Source: Candidatus Cloacimonadota bacterium (GTDB taxonomy: Bacteria; Cloacimonadota; Cloacimonadia; Cloacimonadales; TCS61). From it: 49,439 nt of DNA. How positions within the stretch are numbered: position 1 is the stretch's first letter; each line of letters opens with the position of its first letter. The notes beneath the pieces are model-generated. The model saw only the letters and a list, made by a program, of their open reading frames with translations, ran no database searches and was not told the origin of the DNA. Position numbers and translations under genes: made by a program. Positions 3,313 through 43,525 of the stretch are shown piece after piece. The DNA lies in assembly GCA_030595905.1 (NCBI GenBank), contig JAUVLE010000002.1, forward strand, positions 1 to 49,439, read 5' to 3'.

Positions 3313-3320
3313 ATACTTCG

Positions 3321-5375: not shown

Positions 5376-5432
5376 TTTAATTAATTTACGAAGTTATGTT
5401 CTTATTTGTGATTTTAAATAAGGGGAGAATTA

Positions 5433-7671: not shown

Positions 7672-7770
7672 GATGATGAAAATTGAATATTTAATATTGA
7701 ATATTGAAAATTTAGCTCCGTGTTCTCTTTGGTAATATTTTTCGTGTAAATTCGTGTAAATTCGTGGTTT
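7672..7770. repeat. Intergenic repeat: AATTGAATAT-type left end plus tandem TTCGTGTAAA units
   Basis: AAATTGAATATTTAATATTGAATATTGAAAAT, then TTCGTGTAAA TTCGTGTAAA TTCGTGGTTT at 7741-7770. Confidence 0.6.
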
Positions 7771-7786
7771 CAGAAAAAGGATAATT

Positions 7787-8212: not shown

Positions 8213-8230
8213 TATAATTAAGGAAAATAT

Positions 8231-11277: not shown

Positions 11278-11280
11278 TTT

Positions 11281-11335
11281 GCAACGAGCAAAACGAACCC
11301 CAATTATACAACGGGGCAGGCAAAGATGAATAGAA
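11281..11335. repeat. Left-end block of the IVS-like element family
   Basis: GCAACGAGCAAAACGAACCCC...ACGGGGCAGGCAAAGATGAATAG. Shares the ACGGGGCAGGCAA core with four other copies. Confidence 0.6.
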
Positions 11336-11383
11336 GGAAATTATAATTAATGATCAATTTTGAAAAGCTGGAGAAAAGTTATT

Positions 11384-12067: not shown

Positions 12068-12117
12068 TTTTATTTAATAATACAGTGAACATAACTAACA
12101 AGGAATATTGTTTTTTT

Positions 12118-12165
12118 GTTAGTTTTGCCTTCCACGACGAAGCAGAGCGAAGGCGGGTTCGTTGC
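12118..12165. repeat. 48-nt GC-hairpin repeat ending in GTTCGTTGC
   Basis: Identical at 47 of 48 positions to 16637-16684. Hairpin GCCTTC...GAAGGC. Confidence 0.85.
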
Positions 12166-12183
12166 TAAAAAAGGAATGTAAAT

Positions 12184-12609
12184 ATGAAAGATTGGCAGCC
12201 AAAAATTCTGGCAATATTGTGTAACTGGTGTTCTTATGCCGGAGCAGACCTGGCAGGAGTTTCCAGGATGCAATATCCGCCAAATGTGCGTGTGATAAGG
12301 ATTCCCTGTTCCGGAAGAGTCGATCCGTTATTTATAATGAAAACGCTGCAAAGCGGGTTCGACGGTCTTCTAGTTTCCGGCTGACATCCAGGCGATTGCC
12401 ATTACCTGTCAGGTAATTTTATCGCCCGTAGACGGTATTCTACGATTAAACCGCTTCTTGAAATGATCGGGATCGAACCGGAAAGAGTCCAGTTTTCCTG
12501 GATCTCTGCCGGAGAAGGTGAACGCTTTGCCAATATCATCGAAAAGATAACAAACGATGTTAAGAAGATCGGTCCTGCAAAAAGGTTGGTAAAGGGAGCA
12601 AAGCAATGA
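12184..12609 (+). CDS. mvhD: MvhD/FlxD-like protein, selenocysteine-containing (TGA 12382-12384)
   Basis: The frame continues [17 protein letters not shown]...[10 protein letters not shown] to TGA 12607-12609, which overlaps ATG 12606 of the next gene. Confidence 0.8.
12401..12417 (+). promoter_or_regulatory. Candidate SECIS-like hairpin
   Basis: ATTACC-TGTCA-GGTAAT. The stem is conserved while the loop differs from the other two copies. Confidence 0.35.
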
Positions 12610-13571
12610 TCCAGAACCTGAGAACAGAAGTAAAGAAACTCCTGAAAGATAAAAAAGTGGATATTGTTATCGGTTGGGAAAAAGGTTCTCTTCCGCTTTC
12701 CTCCACACCGCTTTTTATTCATAAAGAAGAAGATGTTGATAGACTTATTTTCGATGAAACCTGCAGAAATAATCTTACAACTTATCTCACAAAAGATAAA
12801 AGAAAACTTGGAAAAACTTATGATAAGGTCGGAATCATTGTAAAAGGCTGCGATGCTCGTTCAATCGTTCTTTACTCGATTGAGCAGCAAATCAAAAGAG
12901 AGAATATCGTTATTATCGGAGTTCCCTGTAACGGTGTTCTGGAAAAGAAGAAAATTCTTCAGAAAACAGAAAATGAAGAAATTCTGGAATTAAAGATAGA
13001 TGGAAAAAATGTGCATTTAAAAGGTCGTGATTTCGATCTGTCAATTCCTTTGAATGAAGTTCTTTGTGATTCCTGTTTAACCTGTCGCTATCCTGATGCT
13101 CCGGTTCACGATATTTTTATTGGAAAACCTCGCAAAGAAATTGATATAAAAGACGAATATAAAAAAGTAACAGATTTTGAAAAAAAATCTTCCGAAGAAC
13201 GTTGGGAATATATCAAAGAAGAATATTCAAAGTGCATTCGCTGTTATGCCTGCAGAAATGTGTGTCCTGCCTGTTATTGCAACGAGTGTTTTGTAGACCA
13301 GAACGATCCTCAATGGATCGGCAAAACTCCTGAAGTCACCGACTCCATCATTTTCCATCTCATCAGGAATCTTCACGTTGCCGGAAGATGCGTGGATTGT
13401 GGAGCTTGTGTTTCCGCTTGTCCGGTCGACCTCGATCTGCGTATTATGAATAAAAAAGTGGAAAAAGAGATCAAAGAACGATTTGATTATACTGCAGGAT
13501 TGGATATCAATGAAAAACCGGCGATGGCAAGCTATTGTGAAAATGAAAAACAAGATTTTATAATGGGTTAG
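12606..13571 (+). CDS. FlxC-like iron-sulfur protein
   Basis: KGCDARSIV, CIRCYACRNVCPACYC, CVDCGACVSACPVDLD. Positioned between an mvhD/flxD-like gene and a FlxB-like gene. Confidence 0.6.
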   Translation: MIQNLRTEVKKLLKDKKVDIVIGWEKGSLPLSSTPLFIHKEEDVDRLIFDETCRNNLTTYLTKDKRKLGKTYDKVGIIVKGCDARSIVLYSIEQQIKRENIVIIGVPCNGVLEKKKILQKTENEEILELKIDGKNVHLKGRDFDLSIPLNEVLCDSCLTCRYPDAPVHDIFIGKPRKEIDIKDEYKKVTDFEKKSSEERWEYIKEEYSKCIRCYACRNVCPACYCNECFVDQNDPQWIGKTPEVTDSIIFHLIRNLHVAGRCVDCGACVSACPVDLDLRIMNKKVEKEIKERFDYTAGLDINEKPAMASYCENEKQDFIMG

Positions 13572-13574: not shown

Positions 13575-13714
13575 ATGATCAAAATAACAAAAACCGAACC
13601 TCTACTCGTTACTAAGCCCCAGCTTAGTAACGCTCGTTTTTGCATTCCCAAGCAGGGGCTTGGGAACGAGAAATTGTCGGGCTTTGGGAACGAGAGTAAT
13701 TTGTGGGATTTATT
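13575..13714. repeat. Hairpin-pair element inserted at the start of the downstream gene
   Basis: Perfect 11-bp stem CGTTACTAAGC/GCTTAGTAACG (13607-13632). A 9-bp stem TTCCCAAGC/GCTTGGGAA (13645-13666). Direct repeat of TTGGGAACGAG. Confidence 0.75.
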
Positions 13715-14746
13715 ATGATTAAAATAAAGAAAAGCGAATTTAGTGAATTTATAAAAAATCTTCAAAAGAATTATAGTGTTTTTGCTCCTGTTACTGACGG
13801 GAAAGCAACAGCTTTCAAAAAGATCAAATCTGCCGATGATATCAATAATAAAATATTGAACACAAAGAGATCACCCAAAGAAATATTCTTCCCGCAATCG
13901 GAAGTTCTTTTCCAATATACGGAAAGAGGAATGGAAGTTCCAAAAAGAGAGGAAAAACCTTTTGCCATCTGGGGAATGAGGAACTGCGATACAAAAAGTC
14001 TTCTGATGTTGGATAATGTTTTTGGTGAAGCACATCAAATGCCGAAAAAAGATATGTATAAAGACCCATATTGGAAGGAAAAATATGATAACTGTCTTGT
14101 TTTCAATCTTGCCTGCAATGAGCCGCTTTCCACCTGTTTCTGCAACTGGTTCGGTGGCGGTCCTTTCGATAAAACAGGTTCCGATATCTTTGTAGTGGAA
14201 ACTGATGATAGTTACATCTTTGAAGCTGTGAGCGATAAAGGAAAGAAATTCCTGAAAGAGTTTAAAACAGCTGAGGAAATATCAGATAAAGAAATCAAAA
14301 AAATTGAAAAATTAAAAGAAACAGCCGAATCTTATCTCGCAGAAAAACAAGATGTCTCATCACTTTTTTCTAAAACAAAAGAAATCTGGGATGAACCGAT
14401 CTGGGATGAGATCGCAGCAAAATGCGTTAATTGCGGAGCTTGTGCTTTTGTATGTCCCACCTGCCACTGCTTCGATGTTTCTGACGAAGGAAAGGGAAAT
14501 AAAGGAAAACGCATTCGCCTCTGGGATTCCTGTATGTTCGCTATCTTCACAAAAGAAGCATCAGGGCACAATCCGCGCAGCCAATCCACTCAACGCGTAC
14601 GGCAAAGAGTAATGCATAAATACAATTATTTTATGGATAATTATGATGAACATCTCTGCACAGGCTGTGGAAGGTGCGTGGTTGTTTGTCCGGTAAATCT
14701 GGATATTCGAGAAGTCATTAAGAAAATATTGGATTATAAAAAATGA
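13715..14746 (+). CDS. FlxB / sulfhydrogenase-beta (HydB) / AsrA-like 4Fe-4S protein
   Basis: CVNCGACAFVCPTCHCFD and CTGCGRCVVVCPVNLD. ATG 13715 (MIKIKKSEF) is preferred over the GTG at 13703. Confidence 0.7.
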   Translation: MIKIKKSEFSEFIKNLQKNYSVFAPVTDGKATAFKKIKSADDINNKILNTKRSPKEIFFPQSEVLFQYTERGMEVPKREEKPFAIWGMRNCDTKSLLMLDNVFGEAHQMPKKDMYKDPYWKEKYDNCLVFNLACNEPLSTCFCNWFGGGPFDKTGSDIFVVETDDSYIFEAVSDKGKKFLKEFKTAEEISDKEIKKIEKLKETAESYLAEKQDVSSLFSKTKEIWDEPIWDEIAAKCVNCGACAFVCPTCHCFDVSDEGKGNKGKRIRLWDSCMFAIFTKEASGHNPRSQSTQRVRQRVMHKYNYFMDNYDEHLCTGCGRCVVVCPVNLDIREVIKKILDYKK

Positions 14747-14753
14747 GGAATAA

Positions 14754-15578
14754 ATGAAAAATACATATATTCCATTTCAGATGAAGGTGAAAAAGATCTA
14801 TACAGAGAGTCCTGATAGAACATTAAAGACCTTTGATCTGTCATATATTAATGAAGAAGATAAATTTGATTTTTTACCGGGTCAATTCTGTGAATTTTCC
14901 ATTTTAGGAAAAGGTGAATCACCTTTCGGGATCGCTTCTTCTCCCACAGAAGAAGATATTCTCAAGTTCACGGTAAACCGCACCGGTTCTGTTACGAACG
15001 AAATTCATTATCTTCAGGAAGGGGATATTGTAGGAATTCGAGGACCTCTCGGAAACTGGTATCCGGTTGAGAAGTTCAAAGGACAGGATGTAGTGATAAT
15101 CGGTGGTGGATTTGCCTTCACAACATTACGTTCGCTTCTTGTTTATATGCTGGAAAATCGTAAAGATTACGGCAAGATAACTGTGATTTACGGTGCCCGG
15201 AATCCCGATCTTTTCATTTATAAAGATGAAATAAAAGAGTGGGAAAAACGCGATGATCTCACATTGCATCTTACAATTGATAATCCGGTTAAAGGTTGGA
15301 ATAAACTTACGGGATTTGTGCCAACAGTAACCAAAGAGGTTTCTTTCGATCCAACTTCCTGGTGTGTTGTGTGCGGACCTCCGATAATGATAAAATACAC
15401 CCTTCCTGTTCTTACCGAAATTGGTTTTCCCGATGAGAAGATTTATACTTCCCTTGAAAGGCGAATGAAATGTGGAATCGGGAAATGCGGCAGATGTAAT
15501 ATTGGCTCAAAATATATTTGTATCGATGGACCGGTGTTTTCTTATGAAGAGATAAAAAAAATTCCGGAAGCATTGTAA
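14754..15578 (+). CDS. FlxA / sulfhydrogenase-gamma (HydG) / AsrB-like FAD-NAD(P)-binding protein with a [2Fe-2S] tail
   Basis: PGQFCEF..SPFGIAS, IIGGGFAFTTL, VCGPPIMIK, C-terminal CGIGKCGRCNIG..C. Confidence 0.75.
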   Translation: MKNTYIPFQMKVKKIYTESPDRTLKTFDLSYINEEDKFDFLPGQFCEFSILGKGESPFGIASSPTEEDILKFTVNRTGSVTNEIHYLQEGDIVGIRGPLGNWYPVEKFKGQDVVIIGGGFAFTTLRSLLVYMLENRKDYGKITVIYGARNPDLFIYKDEIKEWEKRDDLTLHLTIDNPVKGWNKLTGFVPTVTKEVSFDPTSWCVVCGPPIMIKYTLPVLTEIGFPDEKIYTSLERRMKCGIGKCGRCNIGSKYICIDGPVFSYEEIKKIPEAL

Positions 15579-31014: not shown

Positions 31015-31048
31015 AAACAAATTCATGCTGAATTTGTTTATCCATTTT
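31015..31048 (+). terminator. Putative terminator after the hdrA fusion gene
   Basis: Perfect 11-bp stem AAACAAATTCA-TGC-TGAATTTGTTT followed by a T-rich tail. Confidence 0.55.
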
Positions 31049-31230
31049 GAGGATTTTCCGGCAAAAAGTTCTACCTTTAAAAGAGGATATTTTTTTATTA
31101 AATCATTATATTTTACATAGTTAATTATTTAGCTAATAACTAATTTATCAATTTTAAAAATAAAATCTTGACAATTGAATTTAACTGAAAGATTTCAACT
31201 CAGTTTTAAAAAAAATAAAACGGGAAAATT

Positions 31231-32223
31231 ATGAAATTTTACTCAGTTTCAATGAAACAGTGGGTAGAAAACCTCAGCAATGTGGCTTCAGAATTTCAGA
31301 TTTTTGCACCCATCCTCCAAAACGATTTTTTAGATTATGAATTGATCACCCCCGATAATATCGAGCAAATTATTTATAATACAGCCAAACCTACCACACC
31401 ACTCAAGGCTTTCTTTTTCCCCGTAAAGGAAAACGTGGTTATAGATAAAAAAGCAGATAAACAGCGGGTGATAATCGGCGTTCCTTCCTGCGATCTGCAT
31501 GCGGTAAATCTGCTTGATAAGATATTTCTCGATAAAGATTTCCTGGATATATATTACAAAAAGAACAGGGAAAATACTATTCTCATCGGCACGGATTGTT
31601 ATAAGATCACCGATAGCTGCCACTGCACAAGTTACGGACTGAATCCCTATCCTGAGAAAAACAGCGACATCACCTTATCCATTGTAGAGGATATCGTCAT
31701 CCTGAATGTGCAAACCGAAAAAGGTGAGAAATTCCTGGAGAAAATTAAAGATGCGGAATTCAAAGAAGGAATAGCAGCAGAGGACAAGTTAAAGGAAAAA
31801 AGAGACGCCGTTATACAAGAACTCGATTCCAAAAATAAAGAACTACCCGATGCGGAAAGAACCAGGAAAGGGATCGAAAGTTCTGTCGATGAAGTCTGGA
31901 AAGAGTATGCAGAGAAATGCGTTTCCTGCGGAGCCTGCGCTGCTATCTGCCCGACCTGTCATTGCTTTCTTTTGATAGATAAAGAGAATTTTGAAAAGGT
32001 AAAAAACTGGGATAGCTGCCAGTATCCGGCTTTCGAGCGTGTTGCTGCCGGCGAAGACCCGCTGGGAAAAATTTATGAGCGGCTGAAGAACCGTTATCTT
32101 TGTAAATTTGTGCATAAACCCGATATGTTCGGTGAAATTGCCTGTACAGGCTGTGGAAGATGTATCGATGCCTGCATCGGCAAGATAGATAAGAACGAAA
32201 TTATTTTAAAGATATGTAAGTAA
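31231..32223 (+). CDS. FlxB / sulfhydrogenase-beta (HydB) / AsrA-like 4Fe-4S protein
   Basis: Paralog of 13715..14746. CVSCGACAAICPTCHCF and CTGCGRCIDAC. Confidence 0.7.
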   Translation: MKFYSVSMKQWVENLSNVASEFQIFAPILQNDFLDYELITPDNIEQIIYNTAKPTTPLKAFFFPVKENVVIDKKADKQRVIIGVPSCDLHAVNLLDKIFLDKDFLDIYYKKNRENTILIGTDCYKITDSCHCTSYGLNPYPEKNSDITLSIVEDIVILNVQTEKGEKFLEKIKDAEFKEGIAAEDKLKEKRDAVIQELDSKNKELPDAERTRKGIESSVDEVWKEYAEKCVSCGACAAICPTCHCFLLIDKENFEKVKNWDSCQYPAFERVAAGEDPLGKIYERLKNRYLCKFVHKPDMFGEIACTGCGRCIDACIGKIDKNEIILKICK

Positions 32224-32237
32224 CAAAAGGACAATTC

Positions 32238-33059
32238 ATGTCAGAAAAAAATATCTATAAACCCATAAAGTATAAACTGGATAAAGTAGTAGAAGAAACT
32301 TCTCTTATTAAAACATTTTTCATATCCGCTAAAGAAGAATTTGAATTCAAGACCGGACAGTTCGTGGAAGTTACCATCGATGGAATCGGCGAAGCGCCCT
32401 ACACACCTTCTTCTTCACCGTATGTGAAAGATAAAATGGAAATAACCATTATGAAAGCCGGTTACGTTACGGATAAAATGCACCAACTCAAAGGCGGGGA
32501 AACACTCGGGATTCGAGGTCCATTCGGAAAGGGATACCCGATAGAAGATTTCTACGGAAAAGAAGTTCTTATCCTCGGCGGCGGTGTGGGACTTGCTCCG
32601 CTGCGCTGCCTGATCCTTACCTTGCTGGGGGAAGAAGATAAATTCAAAAAGATCAATATCTGTTTCGGCGCAAAAACACCGGCAGATTTCATCTATAAAG
32701 ACTGGTATGATGAATTGAGGAAACACAAGAATGTGGAACTTCTGCGAAGTGTGGATAAAGCCGACGGTAGTTGGCAGGAAACGGAAGGACTGGTAACGGT
32801 TCTATTAGAAAAAGTAGATATAAATTATAAAGAAGCAGTTGCAGTGGTTTGCGGTCCTCCCATTATGATGAAATTCGGAACGTTCCGCCTGCTGGAAATG
32901 GGTGTAAAAGAAGAAAATATCTATCTTTCAATGGAAAAAAATATGTCGTGTGGTTTGGGAAAATGCGGGCACTGTGCGATGGGAGATTATTTTGTTTGCA
33001 AAGACGGTCCTGTTTTCACTTATAATGAAATCAAAGATTATCCGGATATCTGGATATAG
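32238..33059 (+). CDS. FlxA / sulfhydrogenase-gamma (HydG) / AsrB-like FAD-NAD(P)-binding [2Fe-2S] protein
   Basis: Paralog of 14754..15578. GQFVEV..APYTPSS, ILGGGVGLAPL, VCGPPIMMK, CGLGKCGHCAMG..C. Confidence 0.75.
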   Translation: MSEKNIYKPIKYKLDKVVEETSLIKTFFISAKEEFEFKTGQFVEVTIDGIGEAPYTPSSSPYVKDKMEITIMKAGYVTDKMHQLKGGETLGIRGPFGKGYPIEDFYGKEVLILGGGVGLAPLRCLILTLLGEEDKFKKINICFGAKTPADFIYKDWYDELRKHKNVELLRSVDKADGSWQETEGLVTVLLEKVDINYKEAVAVVCGPPIMMKFGTFRLLEMGVKEENIYLSMEKNMSCGLGKCGHCAMGDYFVCKDGPVFTYNEIKDYPDIWI

Positions 33060-33070
33060 AAGAGAAAATT

Positions 33071-33568
33071 ATGAGCAAAAAAATATTAATCGATCTGGAA
33101 AAGTTCAGGAATACCGAAGACGGTAAATATAATTACGGTGAATGCATCTATGATTTTCACCCCGAAAATATCGGCATGAAAGACCTGGTGGAAAAGGCAA
33201 TGATGATGTTCGCCTGCCGCAAATGTGAGGATGCTCCCTGCATTGCCGTTTGCCCGGCAGATGCTCTGGAACGTAATGAAGATGGATTTACGGAAAGAGC
33301 AACCAACCTGTGTATCGGTTGTCAGTCCTGCGTTGCAGTATGTCCTTTCGGTACAATTATGAACGATATATTCACAGCCAAAAAATCCATCTGTGATCTT
33401 TGCGAATTTACTGATGATACACAATCCCTGAAATGCATGGAAACAGCTCCCGTGGGCGCTATCACATTCACGGATATGGATGAGAACGAAGACGAAAATA
33501 TTTTTAAATTGAATGATAAAGTCCTGGTGAAGGAAGTTGCATGGGAAAAACTAATGAATAACGAGTGA
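33071..33568 (+). CDS. HycB/HybA-like poly-ferredoxin electron-transfer subunit
   Basis: CRKCEDAPCIAVCP, CIGCQSCVAVCPFG, CDLC. Confidence 0.65.
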   Translation: MSKKILIDLEKFRNTEDGKYNYGECIYDFHPENIGMKDLVEKAMMMFACRKCEDAPCIAVCPADALERNEDGFTERATNLCIGCQSCVAVCPFGTIMNDIFTAKKSICDLCEFTDDTQSLKCMETAPVGAITFTDMDENEDENIFKLNDKVLVKEVAWEKLMNNE

Positions 33569-33653
33569 CGTAAGCTATGCTTTGCAGGATAGAATATGAA
33601 AGATCACTTAGTGTTACTTCGTGTTCTTAGCGGCTAATTAAGGAAAAGAAAAT

Positions 33654-34583
33654 ATGGGTAAAGAAATTTTTTATTTTTTAATATTTCCGGGATTGTTATT
33701 TTCCGGAGTGATAGGCGGTTTTTTATCTTGGTTCGATAGAAAAATAACAGCACGTGTGCAGTTCAGACAGGGACCTCCGATCCTGCAGCCATTTTATGAT
33801 TTCGTAAAACTGCTGGCAAAGGAAACCATCGTTCCCTTGAAGGGTTCGAGGTTAACGTTTCTTTTTGCTCCTGTGTTTGCATTATTCGGCGCAACCATGT
33901 CTTCCGTGTTCATTCTGCTGCCTGCTCTTGGAATTGAAACAGGTTTTTCCGGCGATATTATTGTATTAATATATCTATTAAATATTCCTTCCGTATGCTA
34001 TATTATTGGTGCACTCGCTTCCGCAAATCCGATGGCATCTGTGGGTGCTTCGCGGGAGATGAAACTGATCTTGAGCTATGAAGTTCCATTCCTGCTGGTT
34101 CTGCTTTCCATAGTTATAAAAGCTGATATGAGTATTAAATTATCTGAAATTATTGCTGTTCAATCTGCAAATGGTGCTTTTATCGGAAGTATATCGGGGA
34201 TCATCGGCTTTATCACAATATTGATGTGTATCCAGGCAAAACTTGGTCTGGTTCCATTCGATATTGCAGAAGCGGAAGGTGAGATCTGCGACGGAGTGGC
34301 AATAGAGTATTCTGGGTCTGCTCTGGCTCTCATCAAATTAACCAAATATATCATGCTTTTTGCCATTCCCGCTCTGGTAGTATTGTTGTTTATGGGTGGG
34401 ATGAATTTTGTGGGAATAAATATTTTGTGGTCTATCCTGAAAGTACTGCTCGTGGTTTTATTGATAACTCTTATCAGGAATACGAATCCGCGGGTAAAGA
34501 TCAAACAGGCGATGAAGTTCTTCTGGGTGTGGATGAATCTTTTTGCAATCGTTGCTGTAATTCTGGCAATTTTTGGCTTATAA
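33654..34583 (+). CDS. mbhM: Membrane subunit, NuoH/HycD/MbhM family
   Basis: DRKITARVQFRQGPP and PFDIAEAEGE motifs. Polytopic. Confidence 0.8.
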   Translation: MGKEIFYFLIFPGLLFSGVIGGFLSWFDRKITARVQFRQGPPILQPFYDFVKLLAKETIVPLKGSRLTFLFAPVFALFGATMSSVFILLPALGIETGFSGDIIVLIYLLNIPSVCYIIGALASANPMASVGASREMKLILSYEVPFLLVLLSIVIKADMSIKLSEIIAVQSANGAFIGSISGIIGFITILMCIQAKLGLVPFDIAEAEGEICDGVAIEYSGSALALIKLTKYIMLFAIPALVVLLFMGGMNFVGINILWSILKVLLVVLLITLIRNTNPRVKIKQAMKFFWVWMNLFAIVAVILAIFGL

Positions 34584-34593
34584 GGAGATAGAG

Positions 34594-35007
34594 TTGGGTT
34601 TAAAAGAAAAATGCTTTAAAAAATCATTATGGCTGTTTCACTTCAGTGCTGGTTCTTGTAATAATTGCGATATCGAAATACTGGATTGTCTTACTCCAAA
34701 ATTCGATGTGGAAAGATTCGGTATGAAACTGGTGGGCAGTGTTCGTCATGCCGATGTGATATTGGTAACGGGTATTGTAACCAGAAAAACGAGGGAAAGG
34801 CTGAAGGAAATCTACAAGCAGGCTCCCAAACCGGTCGTGATCGTTGCTATTGGCGCTTGTGCCTGTACCGGCGGGATATTCGCATCAGGTTATAATTTTG
34901 ATGGTCCGGTAGATAAAGTAGTTCCCGTCAATGCCTACATCCCCGGCTGTCCGCCAAAACCGGAAGCAATGCTGGCAGGCATCATGAAACTGTTAAATAA
35001 AATATAA
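34594..35007 (+). CDS. mbhJ: Group-4 [NiFe]-hydrogenase small subunit (NuoB/MbhJ family)
   Basis: CNNCDIE, GACACTGG, IPGCPPKPE cluster ligands. TTG 34594, 6 nt after AGGAG, is preferred; the ORF track offers TTG 34573. Confidence 0.8.
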   Translation: MGLKEKCFKKSLWLFHFSAGSCNNCDIEILDCLTPKFDVERFGMKLVGSVRHADVILVTGIVTRKTRERLKEIYKQAPKPVVIVAIGACACTGGIFASGYNFDGPVDKVVPVNAYIPGCPPKPEAMLAGIMKLLNKI

Positions 35008-35020
35008 GGAACCGAATTCT

Positions 35021-35464
35021 ATGGATATTGATAAATTTATTGATGAGATCAAAAAGAAATTCCCGAACGAAATAAAACAAACTGAAGTTGTTCATACAAA
35101 ACGGCTAATGATCTATATTTCCAAAGAAGCTCTGCTTAAAGTTACGGAATATATTTTTAAAGACCTGGGACTGCGGTATATCATTGTAACTGCAATGGAT
35201 TCCAAAAAAGGGTATGAGATCATTTATCATTTTTCCGATGATAGCACAGGCTGGATAATAAATCTGAACGTTGTTCTGCCCAGAGAGAAACCGGAGATAG
35301 AATCGTTAACGCCGGTCGTGTATGGCACCGAGTGGATAGAAAGAGAGATATTCGATCTTCTGGGTATTACATTTTTGAATCATCCGAATCCAAAAAGATT
35401 CTTATTTGCAGAAGACTGGCCGGAAGGAAAATATCCGTTCCGAAGAGAACAGGAGAAAAAATAA
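35021..35464 (+). CDS. mbhK: NuoC/MbhK-family subunit
   Basis: WIEREIFDLLGITFLNHPNPKR signature. Confidence 0.75.
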   Translation: MDIDKFIDEIKKKFPNEIKQTEVVHTKRLMIYISKEALLKVTEYIFKDLGLRYIIVTAMDSKKGYEIIYHFSDDSTGWIINLNVVLPREKPEIESLTPVVYGTEWIEREIFDLLGITFLNHPNPKRFLFAEDWPEGKYPFRREQEKK

Positions 35465-36667
35465 ATGGGTAAAAGAACTTTAGTTCCAATCGGACCATAC
35501 CATCCTTTGCTGGAAGAACCCGAATTCTTCAAGCTTTATTGTGATGGAGAGATAGTTAAGGAAGTGGTGTGGGAAACCGGTTATAATCATCGAAGTATAG
35601 AAAAGATATGTGAATCAAAAACATTCGAGCAGGTTTTCTACGTGGTGGAAAGAATTTGCGGAATATGCTCTACATCTCATCCGTTCGCTTATGCAAATGC
35701 AGTGGAGAGCATTCCCGGCGTGGATGTTCCTATCCGTGCAAAATATATCAGAACGATCATCGGAGAATTGGAGAGGATACACAGTCATCTTCTTTGGGTT
35801 GGTCTTGCCGGTCATTTCCTGGGATATAACACTGTTTTCATGTGGGCGTGGAAATACCGCGAACCGGTTCTGGATATGTTCGAGATAATCACAGGAAATA
35901 GAAACAGTTATGCAATGTTCACTATCGGCGGTGTGCGAAGAGACATCAAGGAAGAACAGTATCCGCAATTAGAGAAACTGCTGGATGAGTTCAAACCAAA
36001 ACTTGATCTTATTACCGGTGCCGTGATGGATGATCCTGTTCTGCATGCACGCTTGAAAGGTGTGGGAGTTCTTACTGCAGAAGATATCCACGATTTCGGG
36101 GCAGTTGGTCCCGTTGCCAGAGCTTCGGGAGTTGATATCGATGTGCGTCGGGATGATCCTTATGCAGCTTATGATATGGTAGATTGGAAAGTGATAACTG
36201 CCCAGGCTGGAGATGTTTTTGCCAAAGCAGAAGTTCGCCTTCTGGAATTGTATGAGTCGATCTCAATAATCCGGCAGTGTATAGAAGGATTGAAAAAAGA
36301 AAAAGGCGGCGAGATAAAAGCAAAAGTAAAAGAAATTCCTCCGGGGATCGGTATTGGACGTGCCGAAGCTCCGCGTGGTGAAGTTTTCCATTTCGTTAAA
36401 TCGGATGGCTCGAACAGTCCGGTACGTCATAAAGTACGCGCTCCCAGCTTTACCTGTATTCCCACCTTCAGAAGATCGTGTGTGGGTGGGACAATTGCCG
36501 ATGCAGCCATTTCGCTTGCTGCCGTCGATCCCTGCTATTGCTGTACGGAAAGAATGGCTCAAGTATATAATTATAGCACAGGCAAACGTATTATGAACGC
36601 TGCTGAATTAATAAAACTATCTCAGAAAAGAACTGAGGAATTTAAAACCAAATTTTTAAAAGGTTAG
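35465..36667 (+). CDS. mbhL: Group-4 [NiFe]-hydrogenase large subunit (NuoD/MbhL family)
   Basis: Both Ni-Fe ligand pairs are present: ERICGICSTSH near the N-terminus and DPCYCCTER near the C-terminus, followed by a cleavable-looking extension. Confidence 0.85.
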   Translation: MGKRTLVPIGPYHPLLEEPEFFKLYCDGEIVKEVVWETGYNHRSIEKICESKTFEQVFYVVERICGICSTSHPFAYANAVESIPGVDVPIRAKYIRTIIGELERIHSHLLWVGLAGHFLGYNTVFMWAWKYREPVLDMFEIITGNRNSYAMFTIGGVRRDIKEEQYPQLEKLLDEFKPKLDLITGAVMDDPVLHARLKGVGVLTAEDIHDFGAVGPVARASGVDIDVRRDDPYAAYDMVDWKVITAQAGDVFAKAEVRLLELYESISIIRQCIEGLKKEKGGEIKAKVKEIPPGIGIGRAEAPRGEVFHFVKSDGSNSPVRHKVRAPSFTCIPTFRRSCVGGTIADAAISLAAVDPCYCCTERMAQVYNYSTGKRIMNAAELIKLSQKRTEEFKTKFLKG

Positions 36668-36670
36668 ATT

Positions 36671-38497
36671 ATGATTGATTTACGATTTCTGATATTTTTA
36701 CCAATAGCTGTTGGTATTTTCCTTTATGTACTTCCGGAAAGTATTAAAATTGTAAAAGGAATTATTGCTCTGCTCGTTTCAGCAATCTCTTTTTTCTTTG
36801 CCTATAAAGTGTTCCTATTAGAACCACAGATCATTAACATCCACTGTTTTCTTTTTGAAAAAATAGACAAATTTTTTGTATTTAATGTGGATAATTTGAG
36901 TAAAGTAGTCACTCTGTTCATCGGTTTCTTCGGATTTATGTTTGTGCTTTATTCACTTTCTTATATCACAAAAAAGAAAAAAATAATTAGTTATTATTCT
37001 TATTACCTGATGACTATCGGATCTTCATTTGGTGCCGTACTAACAGATAACTTCATCACGTTCATCTTTTTCTGGGGACTGCTTGGACTTACATTATACA
37101 AGCTTATTAAAGGCTATGATGATGAGAGTTCATCTGCTGCCAAGAAAAGCCTGATACTTATCGGAGCTTCGGACTCGATAATTATTCTGGGCATTGCCTT
37201 ACTCTGGAAGATCGGCGGAACATACAGGATGTCCGGGATCAACACTGCAACGACTGGAGCACTGGCAATTGTAGCTTTTATATCTCTTGTTATTGGGAGT
37301 CTTACAAAAGCCGGTGCTTTCCCTGTTCATAGCTGGATCCCGGATTATGTAAAAAAAGCACCGGCATCTTCTTCTGCATTCTTGCCGGCTTCTCTCGATA
37401 AATTATTGGGAATATACTTTTTAGCCCGAATATGTATGAACTTATTCGAACTGACCCAGTGGGCAACAATGCTCCTTCTTATCATTGGCAGCATAACTAT
37501 TATCGCTGCTGTGATGATGGCTCTGGTCCAGCATAATTATAAAAAACTTCTCGGTTACCACGCAGTATCTCAAGTGGGATACATGGTTATAGGTGTAGGA
37601 TTAGGAACACCGCTTGGTATTGCCGGTGGTCTTTTTCATATGATAAACCATGCTTTATATAAGAGTGGACTTTTTTTAACTGCCGGAAGTGTGGAAAAAC
37701 GAACCGGCGAAGAAGATATCGAGAACCTGGGTGGTCTGTCAAAATATATGCCGCTGACTTTTATTACTGCTCTTATTTGTGCTTTATCGATTTCGGGAAT
37801 TCCGCCATTAAACGGCTTTGCTTCCAAATGGATGATCTACCAGGGAATAATCGATTTCGGAAATGGCAGCGGATTGGCAAGTAGACTCTGGGTCGTCTGG
37901 CTGGTTCTGGCAGTATTCGGTTCTGCATTGACGCTGGCAAGTTTCATAAAATTCATATCGGGGATCTATCTGGGAAGACGAAAAAAAGAATTTGAAAAAG
38001 TAAAAGAAGTCAGCATCCTGATGTGGCTGCCGCAGATAATAATTGCTGCTGTTTGCGTGATCTTCGGCGTCTTTGCTGCAAAACTCATAGTTCCGGCTTT
38101 CATAACTCCTGTTTCCGGTGCGTTCAAAGAAATAGGTATGTGGGATTCTCAGATGGTTTCATTCCTGATACTGGTTTCGATAATAGTTGGATTTATCATT
38201 TATCTTATCGGTAATATCAAGAAATTACGAACAGAAGACAGTTTCATCGGTGGTGAGAAAATACAGGAAGAGACGAATTATTCCCCTCTGGAATTCTATA
38301 AGACCGTCAGCAAATTTCCTCTGCTTGCGTTCTTCTATAAAAAAGCAGAGAAGAAATGGTTTGATCTATATGATATCTTTACAAAGATAATCTTATGGTT
38401 CAATAATTTATTCAGCAAAGCACATTCGGGAATTCTGTCCACCTACCTGATCTGGGTAGTAGCCGGATTGATAATATTACTGATCATTTTAATATAA
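36671..38497 (+). CDS. MrpA/NuoL/MbhH-type antiporter-like subunit
   Basis: 608 aa, polytopic. HAVSQVGYM, FHMINHALYKSGLFL, GIPPLNGFASKW. Confidence 0.8.
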   Translation: MIDLRFLIFLPIAVGIFLYVLPESIKIVKGIIALLVSAISFFFAYKVFLLEPQIINIHCFLFEKIDKFFVFNVDNLSKVVTLFIGFFGFMFVLYSLSYITKKKKIISYYSYYLMTIGSSFGAVLTDNFITFIFFWGLLGLTLYKLIKGYDDESSSAAKKSLILIGASDSIIILGIALLWKIGGTYRMSGINTATTGALAIVAFISLVIGSLTKAGAFPVHSWIPDYVKKAPASSSAFLPASLDKLLGIYFLARICMNLFELTQWATMLLLIIGSITIIAAVMMALVQHNYKKLLGYHAVSQVGYMVIGVGLGTPLGIAGGLFHMINHALYKSGLFLTAGSVEKRTGEEDIENLGGLSKYMPLTFITALICALSISGIPPLNGFASKWMIYQGIIDFGNGSGLASRLWVVWLVLAVFGSALTLASFIKFISGIYLGRRKKEFEKVKEVSILMWLPQIIIAAVCVIFGVFAAKLIVPAFITPVSGAFKEIGMWDSQMVSFLILVSIIVGFIIYLIGNIKKLRTEDSFIGGEKIQEETNYSPLEFYKTVSKFPLLAFFYKKAEKKWFDLYDIFTKIILWFNNLFSKAHSGILSTYLIWVVAGLIILLIILI

Positions 38498-38507
38498 AGG
38501 TAAAATT

Positions 38508-39041
38508 ATGGAAATATATTTAATTCTAATGTTGGTACTGATGATTTTGGGATCGATATATTCACTTCACGCAAAGGATCTTCTTTCGGCGGTCATTTCC
38601 TATGGAATAGTTGGATTCGCTCTGGTTATTGCATTTCTTCTCTTGCAGGCTCCCGACCTTGCGATTGTGCAGGTGGTGGTGGAGATAATAACGCTGATAA
38701 TCATGATAGCTGTGATAAAAGATTCTACAAGTGAAGAATTGAAGTCGAAATTCAATCCGAAATTTTACATCTATTTTGCAGTGGTAGCGATATTTGCCAT
38801 ACTCTTCTTTTACATATTCGACAGAGTAACAGGTACTCTCAGCCAGTTTGGAGAGCATTTCACCAGGATGGCTACAGCTTATATCGAAGGATCGCAGGAA
38901 ACGGGAAGTGCCAACCTGGTTACCGGTGTGATCTTCGATTTCAGAGCCTATGATACACTCGGTGAGGCAACCGTGCTTTTCACTGCTGTTATTGGAGTTC
39001 TAACGATCCTCAGGATAAAAGGTAAGAAAAAGGAAAAATAG
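38508..39041 (+). CDS. MbhD/MbhE-like (DUF4040 + MnhB-domain) membrane subunit
   Basis: N-terminal MbhD-like helices. NLVTGVIFDFRAYDTLGE MnhB motif. Confidence 0.65.
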   Translation: MEIYLILMLVLMILGSIYSLHAKDLLSAVISYGIVGFALVIAFLLLQAPDLAIVQVVVEIITLIIMIAVIKDSTSEELKSKFNPKFYIYFAVVAIFAILFFYIFDRVTGTLSQFGEHFTRMATAYIEGSQETGSANLVTGVIFDFRAYDTLGEATVLFTAVIGVLTILRIKGKKKEK

Positions 39042-39045
39042 TCTT

Positions 39046-39486
39046 ATGAAAGGAATGACGATAATTGTAAAAAAAATAACTCAGATAATGGCTCCCATCA
39101 TTTTCCTGTTCGGGATATATATAATTGTTCACGGGCATCTGACTCCGGGCGGCGGATTTGCCGGCGGTGTAATAATGGCAGGAGCATTTATTCTGTTGAT
39201 ATTATCTGATGGAAGCATTCTTTCCAGTTTAAGGAAAGAAGAAAGCGGATTAGAATTTTTGGAAAGTGCTGCCATTATGGGCTTTCTGATAATTGCAGGA
39301 ATTGGACTGCTTATCTCCGGTACTTCTGTGTTCTTTATTAATTTTTTGGAAAAAGGAACTGTGGGAAAACTGATCAGTGCCGGTGTTATCCCGATCGAAA
39401 ATATCGTCGTTGGTGCGGAAGTCTGTGCTGCTGTTTCTACAATTTTCATTGCTTTAGTTGTTTTCAAAGATGAGGTATCAAAATGA
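39046..39486 (+). CDS. MrpB/MnhB/MbhF-like membrane subunit
   Basis: HGHLTPGGGFAGGV motif. Confidence 0.65.
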   Translation: MKGMTIIVKKITQIMAPIIFLFGIYIIVHGHLTPGGGFAGGVIMAGAFILLILSDGSILSSLRKEESGLEFLESAAIMGFLIIAGIGLLISGTSVFFINFLEKGTVGKLISAGVIPIENIVVGAEVCAAVSTIFIALVVFKDEVSK

Positions 39487-39827
39487 TAGTTTATATTCTG
39501 TGTTTCATTCTTTTTATAGTCGGGCTGTACGGTGTGGTGACCAAACGAAACCTGATAAAGATCATAATCGGACTTGCCATAATGGAGTATAGCGTGAATC
39601 TTTTTCTTATCCTGATCGGTTATGTAAATAACGGAACTGCTCCGATATTGCCGGTTCCGGATGCACTAAAGAATAAACCGTTCGTCGATCCGCTTCCGCA
39701 GGCAATGATCCTGACGGCGATCGTGATCGGCTTGGCTACTACTGCACTACTTCTGTCGATTGCCATCAGATTATATAGAAAATATGGAACTTTTGATATC
39801 AGAAAGATAAATAGTTTAAAAGGATAG
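39483..39827 (+). CDS. MrpC/NuoK/MbhG-like membrane subunit
   Basis: 114 aa, three helices. NLIKIIIGLAIMEYSVNLF, DPLPQAMILTAIVIG. Confidence 0.7.
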   Translation: MIVYILCFILFIVGLYGVVTKRNLIKIIIGLAIMEYSVNLFLILIGYVNNGTAPILPVPDALKNKPFVDPLPQAMILTAIVIGLATTALLLSIAIRLYRKYGTFDIRKINSLKG

Positions 39828-39830
39828 ATA

Positions 39831-41357
39831 ATGAATTCATTAATTCCTTTGTTCGTGATTGTCCCTCTCGGTTCTGCTTTTTTAATGGCGATACTGGGAA
39901 GATTTATTAAAGGATTTGGAAAATTCCTGACTTCATTCGGGTTGTTGTTTTTAACTGGTTTGTCACTGTATTTTATCTTCAATTCCCAAGGAACATTAGT
40001 TTATAAAGTCGGTGGTTTTGAAGCTAGTGCAGGCATACCCGTAGCAATTTATATGGTTATCGACGGACTGAGTAAACTTCTTCTTTTAATCATTGCTCTT
40101 ATCGGATTTCTCTCCGCTTTTTACTCGATATCCTATACAAAACAATATACTGCCGAAAGGAAATTTTATATCCTGTTCTGCCTGATGATTGCCGGAATGA
40201 ATGGTATCGTGATCAGTGGTGATATTTTCAATATGTATGTTTTTCTCGAAATTGCTGCGATCGCATCTTATGCATTAGTTGCCTTCGGAGTGGAAAAAGA
40301 GCAATTGGAAGCTTCCTTCAAATACCAGGTTCTCGGCGGAGTGGCTTCTCTTTTGATCTTGATGAGTATCGGCTTTATTTATTGGCAGACTGGCACACTA
40401 AATATTGCGGATATATCTACACAACTTCCTACCTCAGGAGCGTTTATAAAGTTCGTTTCAATTCTGTTTATTGTGGGATTTGGTCTAAAGGCTGCGATCT
40501 TCCCGTTCCATTCCTGGCTCCCGGATGCACACTCTTCTGCTCCTTCACCAATATCGGCGATGCTTTCCGGTGTGCTTATCAAAGCGATCGGTATCTACGT
40601 GATCTTCAGGCTGTTCTTTAATATGTTTCCGATCTCCTATGAAATTGCGATGACTATTACTATTCTGGGAACTCTCTCGATGCTGATCGGCGTACTTCTC
40701 GCTATCGGTCAATGGGATGTTAAAAGGCTGCTTGCCTACCACAGCATAAGTCAGATGGGTTATGTAATACTTGGGGTAGGAATAGGTATGGTTGTATTAT
40801 CGAAAGGCGGAGATAAGACCATTGCAGCTTTTTCAATACTCGGCGGATTATATCATCTTATAAACCACTCTGCATTTAAAGCCTTGCTTTTCCTTAATGC
40901 CGGGGCTGTTGAATATAGAACCGGAACCAGGAATTTGAAAAGGCTTGGTGGTATCTCACAGAAAATGCCAGTTACATCTGCTACATCTTTCGGAGCAGCT
41001 ATGGCGATTTCCGGCATACCGCCGTTCAATGGTTTCTTTAGTAAACTGATCATTATCATCGCAGCAGTACAAGCCAAGTTCTATTTACTTGCTTTCTTTG
41101 CTGTATTTGTCAGTATAGTCACTTTGGCATCATTTTTAAAAGTGCAGAAATACACTTTCTCCGGCAAACTGAAACCCGCCTGGGAGAAGATAAAAGAAGT
41201 TCCTTTTTCGATGGCTTTTTCCATGATAATTTTGGCGGGACTCTGTCTCGTATTGAGCCTGCTGGTTATCCCGGGTATCAGGGATATTGTGCTGAAACCG
41301 GCAGTTGATGTGCTGTTGAATACAATTCAATATACAACAACAGTTTTAGGAAAATGA
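39831..41357 (+). CDS. MrpD/NuoN/MbhH-type antiporter-like subunit
   Basis: HSWLPDAHSSAPSPISA, HSISQMGY, YHLINHSAFKALLFL, GIPPFNGFFSK. Confidence 0.8.
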   Translation: MNSLIPLFVIVPLGSAFLMAILGRFIKGFGKFLTSFGLLFLTGLSLYFIFNSQGTLVYKVGGFEASAGIPVAIYMVIDGLSKLLLLIIALIGFLSAFYSISYTKQYTAERKFYILFCLMIAGMNGIVISGDIFNMYVFLEIAAIASYALVAFGVEKEQLEASFKYQVLGGVASLLILMSIGFIYWQTGTLNIADISTQLPTSGAFIKFVSILFIVGFGLKAAIFPFHSWLPDAHSSAPSPISAMLSGVLIKAIGIYVIFRLFFNMFPISYEIAMTITILGTLSMLIGVLLAIGQWDVKRLLAYHSISQMGYVILGVGIGMVVLSKGGDKTIAAFSILGGLYHLINHSAFKALLFLNAGAVEYRTGTRNLKRLGGISQKMPVTSATSFGAAMAISGIPPFNGFFSKLIIIIAAVQAKFYLLAFFAVFVSIVTLASFLKVQKYTFSGKLKPAWEKIKEVPFSMAFSMIILAGLCLVLSLLVIPGIRDIVLKPAVDVLLNTIQYTTTVLGK

Positions 41358-41845
41358 TTATGAAATATCTAACTTTATTTATATGCATGTTTTTGTTATG
41401 GTTATTATTAACTTTCAATCTGGAAACACCCAATATAATCGTTGGCTTGATCGCCTCATTGATAACCACGCTTGTCTTTGGAAAACATTTCCTGAAGGGT
41501 TGGAAAAAATTCTTCCAGCCTCGGCGATATTTCTGGATAATAATATACCTGTTCATCTTTACCTGGGAATGCATCAAAGCGAACTTTGATGTAGCATATC
41601 GTGTTCTCAGTCCCAGGATGCCTATCAAACCGGGGATAGTAAAAGTGAAGTCATCCCTGAAAACCGAAATCGGTAAAACTTTTCTGGCGAACTCGATAAC
41701 GATGACACCCGGAACAATAACTGTCGATGTGATCGAAGATGATTTCTATATTCACTGGATATATGTAAGCAGCAAAAACCCGCAAGTGTATACGAAAAAA
41801 ATTTTGGGAAGATTTGAAAAACATATAAAGAGGATCTTTGAATGA
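41354..41845 (+). CDS. MrpE/MnhE/MbhA-like subunit
   Basis: ANFDVAYRVLSPRMPIKPG...NSITMTPGT motif. Confidence 0.65.
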   Translation: MIMKYLTLFICMFLLWLLLTFNLETPNIIVGLIASLITTLVFGKHFLKGWKKFFQPRRYFWIIIYLFIFTWECIKANFDVAYRVLSPRMPIKPGIVKVKSSLKTEIGKTFLANSITMTPGTITVDVIEDDFYIHWIYVSSKNPQVYTKKILGRFEKHIKRIFE

Positions 41846-42102
41846 TGATAGACATATTTTTATATTTATTATTAGGAATGAGTTTCCTGTGCTTCATCCG
41901 GGTTGTATTTGGACCCACGATGGCAGACAGGATGGTGGCGATCGATATATTTGGAATTCTGGTAGTCGGGGTATGTGCGATCCTGGCAGTTAAAACAGGC
42001 AGGATGTTCCTGATAGATATCGGCATTGCCTGGATACTTCTCAGTTTTATCGGCACGATAACTCTGGCAAAATATTTAACGGGGAAAAAGTTAGATGAAT
42101 AA
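41842..42102 (+). CDS. MrpF/MnhF/MbhB-like subunit
   Basis: 86 aa. GPTMADRMVAIDIFG motif. Confidence 0.65.
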   Translation: MMIDIFLYLLLGMSFLCFIRVVFGPTMADRMVAIDIFGILVVGVCAILAVKTGRMFLIDIGIAWILLSFIGTITLAKYLTGKKLDE

Positions 42103-42418
42103 TATAAGCTTAATTTTTTTCGGGATCGGAATTTTATTCGATCTGTTCGGATGTATTGGATTGATCAGGCTTCCGGATGTTTATAATAGATTGCAGTCGG
42201 CAACAAAATCCGTTACTCTGGGAACCTGCAGTATAATGTTCGGTGTCTTCCTGAACTATGGTTTCAGCGGAATTGGACTGAAGGCATTGCTCTCTATTCC
42301 ACTTATATTCTTTGCTTCGACGGTTGCAGCTCATGCTCTGATCAGAGGTTCTTATAAATACGGTATAAAATTGTGGGATAAAACAGTTGTCGATGATTAC
42401 AAGGATGTACAAAAATGA
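42095..42418 (+). CDS. MrpG/MnhG/MbhC-like subunit
   Basis: GCIGLIRLPDVYNRLQSATKSVTLG motif. Confidence 0.7.
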   Translation: MNNISLIFFGIGILFDLFGCIGLIRLPDVYNRLQSATKSVTLGTCSIMFGVFLNYGFSGIGLKALLSIPLIFFASTVAAHALIRGSYKYGIKLWDKTVVDDYKDVQK

Positions 42419-43026
42419 GGTATCCGAAACTACGAGAATTGAAAGAAGCTATTATTTCCTTGTTTACAATTCCATATACAACGAAATTCCCAAAAGGTGA
42501 TTTTAAACCTGTTGCAGGATACCGTGGAAAACCGGTGGTGGACGAAGATAATTGTGTGGGCTGCGAAACCTGTGCAAATGTTTGTCCATCCGGTGCGATC
42601 ACCTTTACAGATGATGTGGAAAAGAAGATCAGGATTATAGAAAGAAACTACGGTCAGTGTATTTTCTGTGGCAAATGCGAAGAACACTGCATCACCCAAA
42701 AAGGTGTTAAACTGTCTGATGAATTATACGAGCTTACAGTTTTCGATAGATCACAGTTGATAGAAACCCAGGAAAGGGAACTACTGCTCTGTGCAAATTG
42801 CGGAGCTGTAATTACCACAAAAGACCACATGAAATTTATTCATGCCAAACTGGGACCAAAAGCTTATTCTTCCATTTTGAATCTGAATATCCTTAACGAG
42901 AGACTTCGGCTTGCTTCGAGGGAAGAAACTTCCGTGAAAGTGATCGATGACCTGAAAAGAAAAGATATGTTCAATATTTTGTGTCCGAATTGTAATCGCA
43001 AAATTCAGGTAAAGAACCTGTTATAA
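42415..43026 (+). CDS. mbhN: NuoI/MbhN-like 2x[4Fe-4S] subunit with a C-terminal Cys-pair extension
   Basis: CVGCETCANVCP and CIFCGKCEEHC, plus extra CANCG...CPNCN. Confidence 0.7.
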   Translation: MRYPKLRELKEAIISLFTIPYTTKFPKGDFKPVAGYRGKPVVDEDNCVGCETCANVCPSGAITFTDDVEKKIRIIERNYGQCIFCGKCEEHCITQKGVKLSDELYELTVFDRSQLIETQERELLLCANCGAVITTKDHMKFIHAKLGPKAYSSILNLNILNERLRLASREETSVKVIDDLKRKDMFNILCPNCNRKIQVKNLL

Positions 43027-43039
43027 AAAAAATTTCAAT

Positions 43040-43076
43040 GGTTCATCCGGCAAATGCTCGATGAACCGTTTTTTTA
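43040..43076 (+). terminator. Terminator-like hairpin between mbhN and the protease gene
   Basis: GGTTCATC-12 nt-GATGAACC followed by GTTTTTTT. Confidence 0.45.
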
Positions 43077-43081
43077 ATAAA

Positions 43082-43525
43082 ATGAAATTAAAAAAATTAC
43101 TTTCTAAAACAGATAAAAAAATTCTCTTTGTCGGAATCGGCAATGCCATCAAAAGCGATGACGGTATCGGGATTTATATTTGTAAGAATATCAAAACAAA
43201 AAATAATATCCGGACTCTTATCGTAGAAAGCGGTATTGAAAAATATGTAGGTAAAATAAATTCCATGGATCCGGGTATCCTGATCTTAGTCGATTGCACG
43301 GATTTTAATAAGCAACCCGGTTTTTATGATCTTATTTCCGTTAATGATATCCGGGATCATACTTTCAACACCCACACGATTTCCGTAAAAAGGATTTCCG
43401 AATTCTTTAAAATGGAAAAATATCTCCTGGGAATTCAACCGGAGAATGTTAAGTTCGGAGAGCAAATATCAGAAAAAGTTAAACAGAGCGCAGACCAATT
43501 AATTCAATATATAAATAGAAGTTAG
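43082..43525 (+). CDS. hycI: [NiFe]-hydrogenase maturation endopeptidase (HycI/HyaD family)
   Basis: ILFVGIGNAIKSDDGIG, ILVDC, HT.S motifs. The ATG at 43061 lies inside the upstream hairpin, so ATG 43082 is preferred. Confidence 0.7.
   Translation: MKLKKLLSKTDKKILFVGIGNAIKSDDGIGIYICKNIKTKNNIRTLIVESGIEKYVGKINSMDPGILILVDCTDFNKQPGFYDLISVNDIRDHTFNTHTISVKRISEFFKMEKYLLGIQPENVKFGEQISEKVKQSADQLIQYINRS

Follow-up and report, generated by a model that had tools for sequence, protein, structure and literature searches.

With which carrier does a membrane [NiFe]-hydrogenase exchange electrons when its operon is headed by genes that resemble the NADPH-oxidising half of a soluble hydrogenase? This question is raised by a locus in the 49,439-nt stretch of DNA analysed here (the window; Candidatus Cloacimonadota bacterium, assembly GCA_030595905.1, contig JAUVLE010000002.1), in which the unit under study spans 31231-43525 (window numbering is used throughout). 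Judging by its genes and their order, this unit is almost certainly an intact copy of the Hun-type operon, i.e., a member of the Hun family. We propose, with a probability of about 0.6, that Hun joins a membrane group 4 [NiFe]-hydrogenase and an Mrp antiporter to an NAD(P)H-linked module, HunABC, in a reversible, ion-coupled complex.

Hun was named by Glass et al. 2021 (bioRxiv 10.1101/536078 / Environ Microbiol), whose passages on the complex describe a 16-subunit Ni-Fe hydrogenase-Na+/H+ antiporter supercomplex with AsrAB-like HunAB, the Fe-S protein HunC, a HunEFGP hydrogenase module, a HunH-O proton/sodium translocation module and the diagnostic HunG motifs CGIC...CYCC, and name Atribacteria, Firmicutes, Omnitrophica, Elusimicrobia, Bacteroidetes and Kosmotoga as hosts. 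The operon has already been described from genomes, and the window holds a well-preserved copy of it, which shares with the complex of those passages the 16 genes, their order, AsrAB-like HunAB, HunC, the Mrp module and the CGIC/CYCC motifs. It differs in adding hycI as a 17th gene, in a third Cys4 set in HunC, and in carrying neither a molybdopterin-like insert nor rex; Cloacimonadota are not named as hosts in the same passages. Gene identities were taken from Pfam and NCBIfam profile assignments, and the letters hunA-P were mapped onto the window genes through gene order, an inferred mapping. The unit contains 17 open reading frames (ORFs), all on the + strand, and both their positions and their profile assignments agree with the gene anatomy given in an earlier note on this DNA:

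31231-32223, + strand: hunA, 330 aa, Fer4_22; Fe-S protein like AsrA, ShyB and the beta subunit of soluble hydrogenase I (SHI), with two CxxCxxCxxxC motifs
32238-33059, + strand: hunB, 273 aa, FAD_binding_6 + NAD_binding_1 + DHODB_Fe-S_bind; SHI-gamma/AsrB/HydG-like flavoprotein
33071-33568, + strand: hunC, 165 aa, Fer4_11; HycB/HydN-like ferredoxin
33654-34583, + strand: hunD, MbhM/NuoH-like membrane anchor
34573-35007, + strand: hunE, MbhJ/NuoB-like small subunit, with proximal-cluster cysteines
35021-35464, + strand: hunF, MbhK/NuoC-like subunit
35465-36667, + strand: hunG, [NiFe] large subunit of NuoD type, 400 aa
36671-38497, + strand: hunH, MrpA/NuoL-type antiporter-like subunit, 608 aa, Proton_antipo_M
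38508-39041, + strand: hunI, MbhD+MbhE fusion
39046-39486, + strand: hunJ, MnhB-like subunit
39483-39827, + strand: hunK, MnhC/NuoK-like subunit, Oxidored_q2
39831-41357, + strand: hunL, second antiporter-like subunit, MrpD type, 508 aa, Proton_antipo_M
41354-41845, + strand: hunM, MrpE-like subunit (MNHE)
41842-42102, + strand: hunN, MrpF-like subunit
42095-42418, + strand: hunO, MrpG-like subunit (MnhG)
42415-43026, + strand: hunP, HycF/MbhN-like 2x[4Fe-4S] subunit with an extra, conserved CxxC...CxxC
43061-43525, + strand: hycI, HycI-type maturation endopeptidase, the 17th gene

The hydrogenase itself appears to be catalytically competent. The window was compared with 80 related loci from species genomes, 12 of Cloacimonadota (HunG 81-85% identity) and 68 of Bacteroidales (72-77%). 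HunG keeps all four Ni-Fe cysteines in its L1 and L2 motifs (RICGICSTSH and DPCYCCTER, the latter present in 80/80 related loci), and the 37 residues beyond DPCYCCTER form a C-terminal extension. HycI retains the GxGNxxxxDDGxG motif, the small subunit HunE the expected proximal-cluster cysteines and HunP its expected motifs, and HypD is encoded elsewhere in the genome, on contig C228. With the Ni-Fe and proximal-cluster cysteines, the extension and its endopeptidase, and a Hyp maturase all at hand, a catalytically competent group 4 enzyme is predicted, and the view of the earlier note that this is a true hydrogenase stands. Among solved structures the best match of HunG was MbhL of Pyrococcus furiosus (6cfw_L, E 4.4e-85), with Escherichia coli HycE also near, and HunP matched E. 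coli HycF (7z0s_F, E 3.9e-19). Beyond its two [4Fe-4S] motifs HunP has four further cysteines (C126, C129, C190 and C193) that are kept in both phyla and may form an additional metal site. The first CxxC pair was rejected as a novelty of Hun, since it aligns with a pair in E. coli HycF; the alignment stops before the second pair.

The evidence on the redox partner lies in the three head genes. HunA and HunB are homologous to the beta and gamma subunits of P. furiosus SHI (group 3b), i.e., to its NADPH-oxidising half, at about 30-40% identity: HunA matched 9nez_B (SHI-beta) with E 2.9e-32, and HunB matched 9nez_C (SHI-gamma) with E 1.5e-53. The structure behind both matches (PDB 9NEZ) is, as cited in PMC13582414, the work of Xiao et al. 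in 2025. HunB carries GGGVGLAP and CGPP in its NAD(P) domain and a [2Fe-2S] site at C238, C243, C246 and C254. All 62 orthologues compared have the three glycines and the Ala-Pro of GGGVGLAP as well as the four cysteines of the [2Fe-2S] site, and at least 97% keep CGPP; HunA has 16 cysteines that are invariant across 56 orthologues. Conservation of this order in the GGGxGxAP and CGPP motifs, in the [2Fe-2S] ligands and in the cysteines of HunA argues for a working flavin/nucleotide site in HunB, not a relic. The nearest solved relatives of HunC are the connector ferredoxins of HycB type. Eight of its 12 cysteines are invariant and account for two [4Fe-4S] clusters, and for this reason the name poly-ferredoxin, used for it before, was an overstatement. 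Three of the others, C25, C108 and C122, are present in 11/11 Cloacimonadota and C111 in 10/11, and all are nearly absent from 52 Bacteroidales HunC sequences, which suggests that HunC may bind a third Fe-S cluster in the Cloacimonadota lineage alone.

The partners of this pair differ from those in SHI. The unit has no alpha or delta subunit, the soluble partners of a group 3b sulfhydrogenase, and HunAB stands instead with the membrane subunits of a group 4 enzyme. A separate group 3b beta/gamma pair lies on contig C205, and a third AsrAB-like pair at 13703-15578 of the window; as the genome has these two other pairs, the mbh-linked HunAB can be regarded as a dedicated paralogue. The C205 locus (1156-5983) is a canonical group 3b beta-gamma-delta-alpha operon with its own protease, and its large subunit has the motifs RICAICTVSH and DPCISCATH. 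The pair at 13703-15578 (29%/40% identity to HunA/HunB) is found within an upstream Hdr/MvhD/sulfur-relay cluster.

The likeness to AsrAB and to sulfhydrogenase, which reduces sulfur in vitro, also raises the reading that HunAB is a sulfur/polysulfide or sulfite-related reductase, with Hun as an H2:sulfur oxidoreductase. AsrA/AsrB and sulfhydrogenase beta/gamma are indeed the top models of HunA and HunB, and sulfur-relay and Hdr genes abound upstream in the window. Nevertheless, the scores were below the curated cut-offs (139 bits against 323 for the AsrA model TIGR02910, and 226 against 289 for the AsrB model TIGR02911), no AsrC or sirohaem subunit was found in the unit with Pfam and NCBIfam, so that it is not an AsrABC system, and the sulfur-relay cluster does not accompany hun in other loci. 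In addition, sulfur reduction by SHI is not regarded as a physiological activity. We regard this reading as scarcely credible.

An independent pointer to nicotinamide nucleotides came from regulation in Bacteroidales. A divergent Rex-like gene is located upstream of hunA in 49 Bacteroidales loci, and in nearly all of these a Rex box, TTGTGAnnnnnTTCACA, is found about 204 nt upstream of hunA; this combination links hun in those Bacteroidales to the NADH/NAD+ state. Outside the genus of the window, both in Cloacimonadota and in Bacteroidales, hypF and hypD are found in divergent orientation a short way upstream of hunA (L007 2092-5580, L012 1043-4538 and L013 1336-5149), with rex between hypF/hypD and hunA in Bacteroidales; in the genome of the window the hyp genes are elsewhere.

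On the basis of the nearest solved relatives, the conserved HunA and HunB motifs and the Rex control in Bacteroidales, the following electron path can be drawn. The hydrogenase part, HunD-G plus HunP, would be built around a full Mrp module (HunH-O) with two antiporter-like subunits and matured by HycI as the complex's own protease, and HunABC would be a cytoplasmic three-protein input/output module. Electrons from NAD(P)H would enter the FAD and the [2Fe-2S] cluster of HunB and pass to the HunA clusters, from there through HunC, a HycB-like wire, to the HycF-like HunP, and then via the proximal cluster of HunE to the Ni-Fe site of HunG. Such a reaction would go either way, coupled through the Mrp module to the movement of H+/Na+. 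Where H2 pressures are low, as in syntrophic habitats, H2 evolution from NAD(P)H could be neutral or slightly energy-yielding, and at high H2 the complex could run as an ion-pumping H2:NAD(P)+ oxidoreductase. The architecture would be that of a formate hydrogenlyase whose FdhF is replaced, at its docking place, by a pair acting as NAD(P)H dehydrogenase. In E. coli formate hydrogenlyase 1 (FHL-1; 7Z0S, group 4a) a soluble donor is likewise connected via a HycB-type ferredoxin, and HunC, HunP and HunG correspond to HycB, HycF and HycE; the donor there is FdhF, however, whereas in Hun it is the SHI-beta/gamma-type pair, and Hun has a full Mrp module in addition. For related group 4b clusters, an NADPH link of SHI-beta/gamma homologues has already been put forward independently (PMC13582414). 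The NAD(P)H coupling suggested in the earlier note is thus plausible, and that NAD(P)H is the physiological partner of Hun we regard as somewhat better than an even bet.

Several points weigh against NAD(P)H as the partner. The evolution of H2 from NAD(P)H is endergonic under standard conditions, and would become possible only when H2 is low or when the ion gradient pays for it. The preference between NADH and NADPH cannot be read off the sequence, where the Lys-Thr conserved behind the second strand of the NAD domain gives no more than a weak hint. The best Rex box candidate upstream of the window hunA shows 5 mismatches; the genome has a single rex-like gene, on contig C70 (12249-12899, minus strand), beside another complex. 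A literature search found no Hun biochemistry and no Kosmotoga expression data. HunP could also accept electrons directly from ferredoxin, by analogy with MbhN. Finally, both published accounts favour ferredoxin: the passages of Glass et al. 2021 propose it as the donor through HunABC, and those of Williams et al. 2021 on the Cloacimonadota enzyme, placed in HydDB group 4g, read it as ferredoxin-dependent and do not mention the flavoprotein pair. The group 4g label of the Cloacimonadota enzyme is that of published calls, and a 2026 paper (PMC13582414) finds group 4g to be polyphyletic.

With no box near hunA, none with two or fewer mismatches anywhere on the contig (C85), and the rex-like gene next to the C70 complex, Rex control of the window copy was discarded. 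On C70 the rex-like gene lies directly upstream of a second Mrp/complex-I-like cluster (about 3066-12899), with a NuoD-like subunit devoid of the Ni-Fe cysteines (Mbx/Mbs/Ehr-like).

The ferredoxin proposal amounts to an H2-evolving, ion-translocating Hun in which HunABC is a mere relay from reduced ferredoxin and the nucleotide domain of HunB is non-catalytic. Besides its two published advocates, it has in its favour that the nearest solved enzyme, P. furiosus Mbh, is ferredoxin-dependent, and that H2 formation from ferredoxin with ion pumping is thermodynamically favourable. Mbh (6CFW, HydDB group 4d) and Hun share the NuoH/B/C/D/I-type core and the Mrp-derived membrane subunits. However, Mbh has one antiporter-like subunit where Hun has two, it has no HunABC-type module, and its ferredoxin docks on MbhN, whereas HunP is nearer to HycF than to MbhN; the gene order is also different from that of mbhA-N, as the earlier note had said, and the unit is not of the group 4d type. 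Against the ferredoxin proposal, a passive relay would hardly account for an FNR-type FAD/NAD(P) domain whose motifs are kept in 62 orthologues, the closest solved homologue of HunB is the NADPH site of SHI, a ferredoxin site requires no flavoprotein, and the Rex control in Bacteroidales points to an NADH-linked physiology. We therefore consider a ferredoxin-only Hun unlikely, albeit worth keeping in mind.

A HycF/MbhN-type subunit and a flavoprotein are both present, and this would also fit a complex with two donors, in which H2 is formed by confurcation of electrons from ferredoxin (at HunP or HunC) and NAD(P)H (at HunB), or is bifurcated to both. The FAD of SHI-gamma/NfnA-type proteins is not known to act as a bifurcating flavin, and the unit encodes no second flavin. 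Bifurcation or confurcation has been proposed for clusters that combine SHI-beta/gamma with a degenerate Fdh-like protein (PMC13582414). Gene sets of a related kind are on record: in Saganbacteria RX5A an Mrp-type group 4 hydrogenase, called "enigmatic", has asrA, asrB and cooF as neighbours (Matheus Carnevali et al. 2019, PMC6349859), and SHI-beta/gamma homologues occur in group 4b [NiFeSe] clusters, where they were read as NADPH-linked (PMC13582414). As in Hun, AsrAB or SHI-beta/gamma and a CooF/HycB-like ferredoxin accompany an Mrp-type hydrogenase in both cases, but these also have an extra molybdopterin/Fdh-like branch, and no such third branch occurs in the window or in any of its 80 relatives. 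A two-donor Hun accordingly seems improbable to us. With the same 16-gene operon named Hun in 2021, and asrAB or SHI-beta/gamma beside group 4 enzymes noted in 2019 and 2026, the novelty that the earlier note implied for this arrangement is lost.

The NAD(P)H reading presupposes that the head genes and the hydrogenase genes belong together. The earlier note had described three co-oriented, tightly spaced head genes, and the gaps measured on the + strand, 14 nt between hunA and hunB, 11 nt between hunB and hunC and 85 nt between hunC and hunD, bear this out. It had also named a promoter/terminator pair between 33568 and 33654 as the finding that would split the unit. No promoter or terminator match was found in this 85-nt gap, and its predicted fold was no better than that of shuffled sequence (z -0.41); the sigma-70 scan as such gave fewer matches than shuffled sequence and was uninformative. 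The block hunA-hycI is predicted to form one transcription unit. The synteny of the head genes with mbh in relatives, proposed as a check, was seen in all the loci that reach far enough: the order hunA-hunB-hunC-hunD...hunP-hycI is kept in every locus with a long enough contig (58-63 loci, two phyla), so that the loss of synteny named in the earlier note as refuting is not observed either. The median gap is 11 bp between hunC and hunD (63 loci) and 6 bp between hunA and hunB, and hycI follows hunP in 57 loci. On a 5.87-Mb contig the operon begins at hunA, immediately past a divergent arginase gene. The same full gene order is found in a distant Cloacimonadota clade (HunG 56-61% identity). In a survey of 232 Cloacimonadota species genomes, about 27 had a close HunG (at least 78% identity) and about 20 more a HunG at 56-61% identity; among the other species of the genus to which the genome of the window belongs, HunG was found in 0/8.

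At the left limit of the unit two further elements were located:

31015-31048, + strand: hairpin, a perfect 11-bp inverted repeat AAACAAATTCA-N3-TGAATTTGTTT, then a short T-run, ATCCATTTT
31104-31230, + strand: hun promoter/leader, with TTGACA at 31168-31173 conserved in congeners (alignment with G153 and G156)

The hairpin lies 23 nt past the stop codon of an HdrA-fusion gene, the last of an upstream HdrA/NuoEF-type operon, and folds with z -2.0 (8/200 shuffles fold equally well). It is likely the terminator of that operon and hence the left limit of the hun unit, but could act as an operator instead. The promoter function of 31104-31230 is inferred, and its TTGACA was missed by the sigma-70 scan. 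These elements bear on the idea that Hun works in a larger, Flx-Hdr-like assembly with the upstream operon. In its support, the HdrA-fusion gene ends only 239 bp before hunA on the same strand, the corresponding slot of congeners holds Mvh together with an HdrA, and a hydrogenase beside this Hdr operon is a conserved theme of the genus. Nonetheless, an HdrA or NuoF homologue adjoins hun in none of the 80 other loci, the hairpin with its T-run separates the two operons, hun has its own conserved promoter region, and the unit lacks MvhD/FlxD and HdrBC, which FlxABCD-HdrABC would require. A functional HdrA-Hun unit was consequently rejected as the main explanation, with HdrA non-syntenic with hun elsewhere and a hairpin after its gene, and we judge it very improbable. 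For the same reasons the Flx label of the earlier note does not hold, the neighbouring HdrA belonging to a separate, non-syntenic operon.

The comparison with congeners provided what is new here, a locus-level exchange of hun with an Mvh-HdrA cassette in sister species. A CsgG-like gene downstream of the unit is present in 8/8 congeners. The region upstream of it was examined in four, in two of which (G153 and G156) a contig spans the whole slot. In both, collinearity with the window covers the HdrA operon as far as about 31103, with 89-91% nucleotide identity, and returns at about 43555. Between these points the 12.3-kb hun unit gives way to a group 3c Mvh-HdrA cassette of about 5.7 kb, made up of hycI, hdrA (649 aa), mvhD, mvhG and mvhA. 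An Mvh-type large subunit is encoded in 8/8 congeners and not in the genome of the window, the reverse of the HunG pattern. The congeners retain the hun promoter region with its TTGACA (window 31104-31276 against L093 12398-12707 and L092; G153 and G156), and also a 31-codon ORF that opens with 12-15 residues of the HunA N-terminus. Because the promoter region and this HunA stub persist, hun can be taken as the ancestral occupant that mvh-hdrA replaced, and the incoming genes probably took over the hun promoter. Moreover, since the whole block was exchanged as a single cassette, the swap is a separate line of evidence for hunA to hycI evolving as one unit, and it hints that the Hun and Mvh-HdrA hydrogenases fill related roles.

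As a tentative extension, Hun may be viewed as a "hydrogenase-type complex I", reversible, ion-translocating and with an SHI-beta/gamma NAD(P)H module in the place of NuoEFG, that swaps with a bifurcating Mvh-HdrA behind one conserved promoter. If this is true, Hun and Mvh-HdrA would serve the same redox node, i.e., H2 exchange for the neighbouring Hdr/sulfur-relay system. The genome of the window and its sister species form a natural near-isogenic pair, with hun or mvh-hdrA at the same promoter, and their comparison could reveal the role of Hun. Hun-type operons are common among uncultured anaerobes, occurring in about one fifth of the Cloacimonadota species genomes and in many Bacteroidales, and in published metabolic models the enzyme figures as a ferredoxin-dependent Mbh. 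Should HunAB couple to NAD(P)H, Hun would represent a second, independent way of joining an NAD(P)H dehydrogenase to a pump of complex-I type, and these models would be wrong about how reducing power is gained or disposed of by such fermenters and syntrophs.

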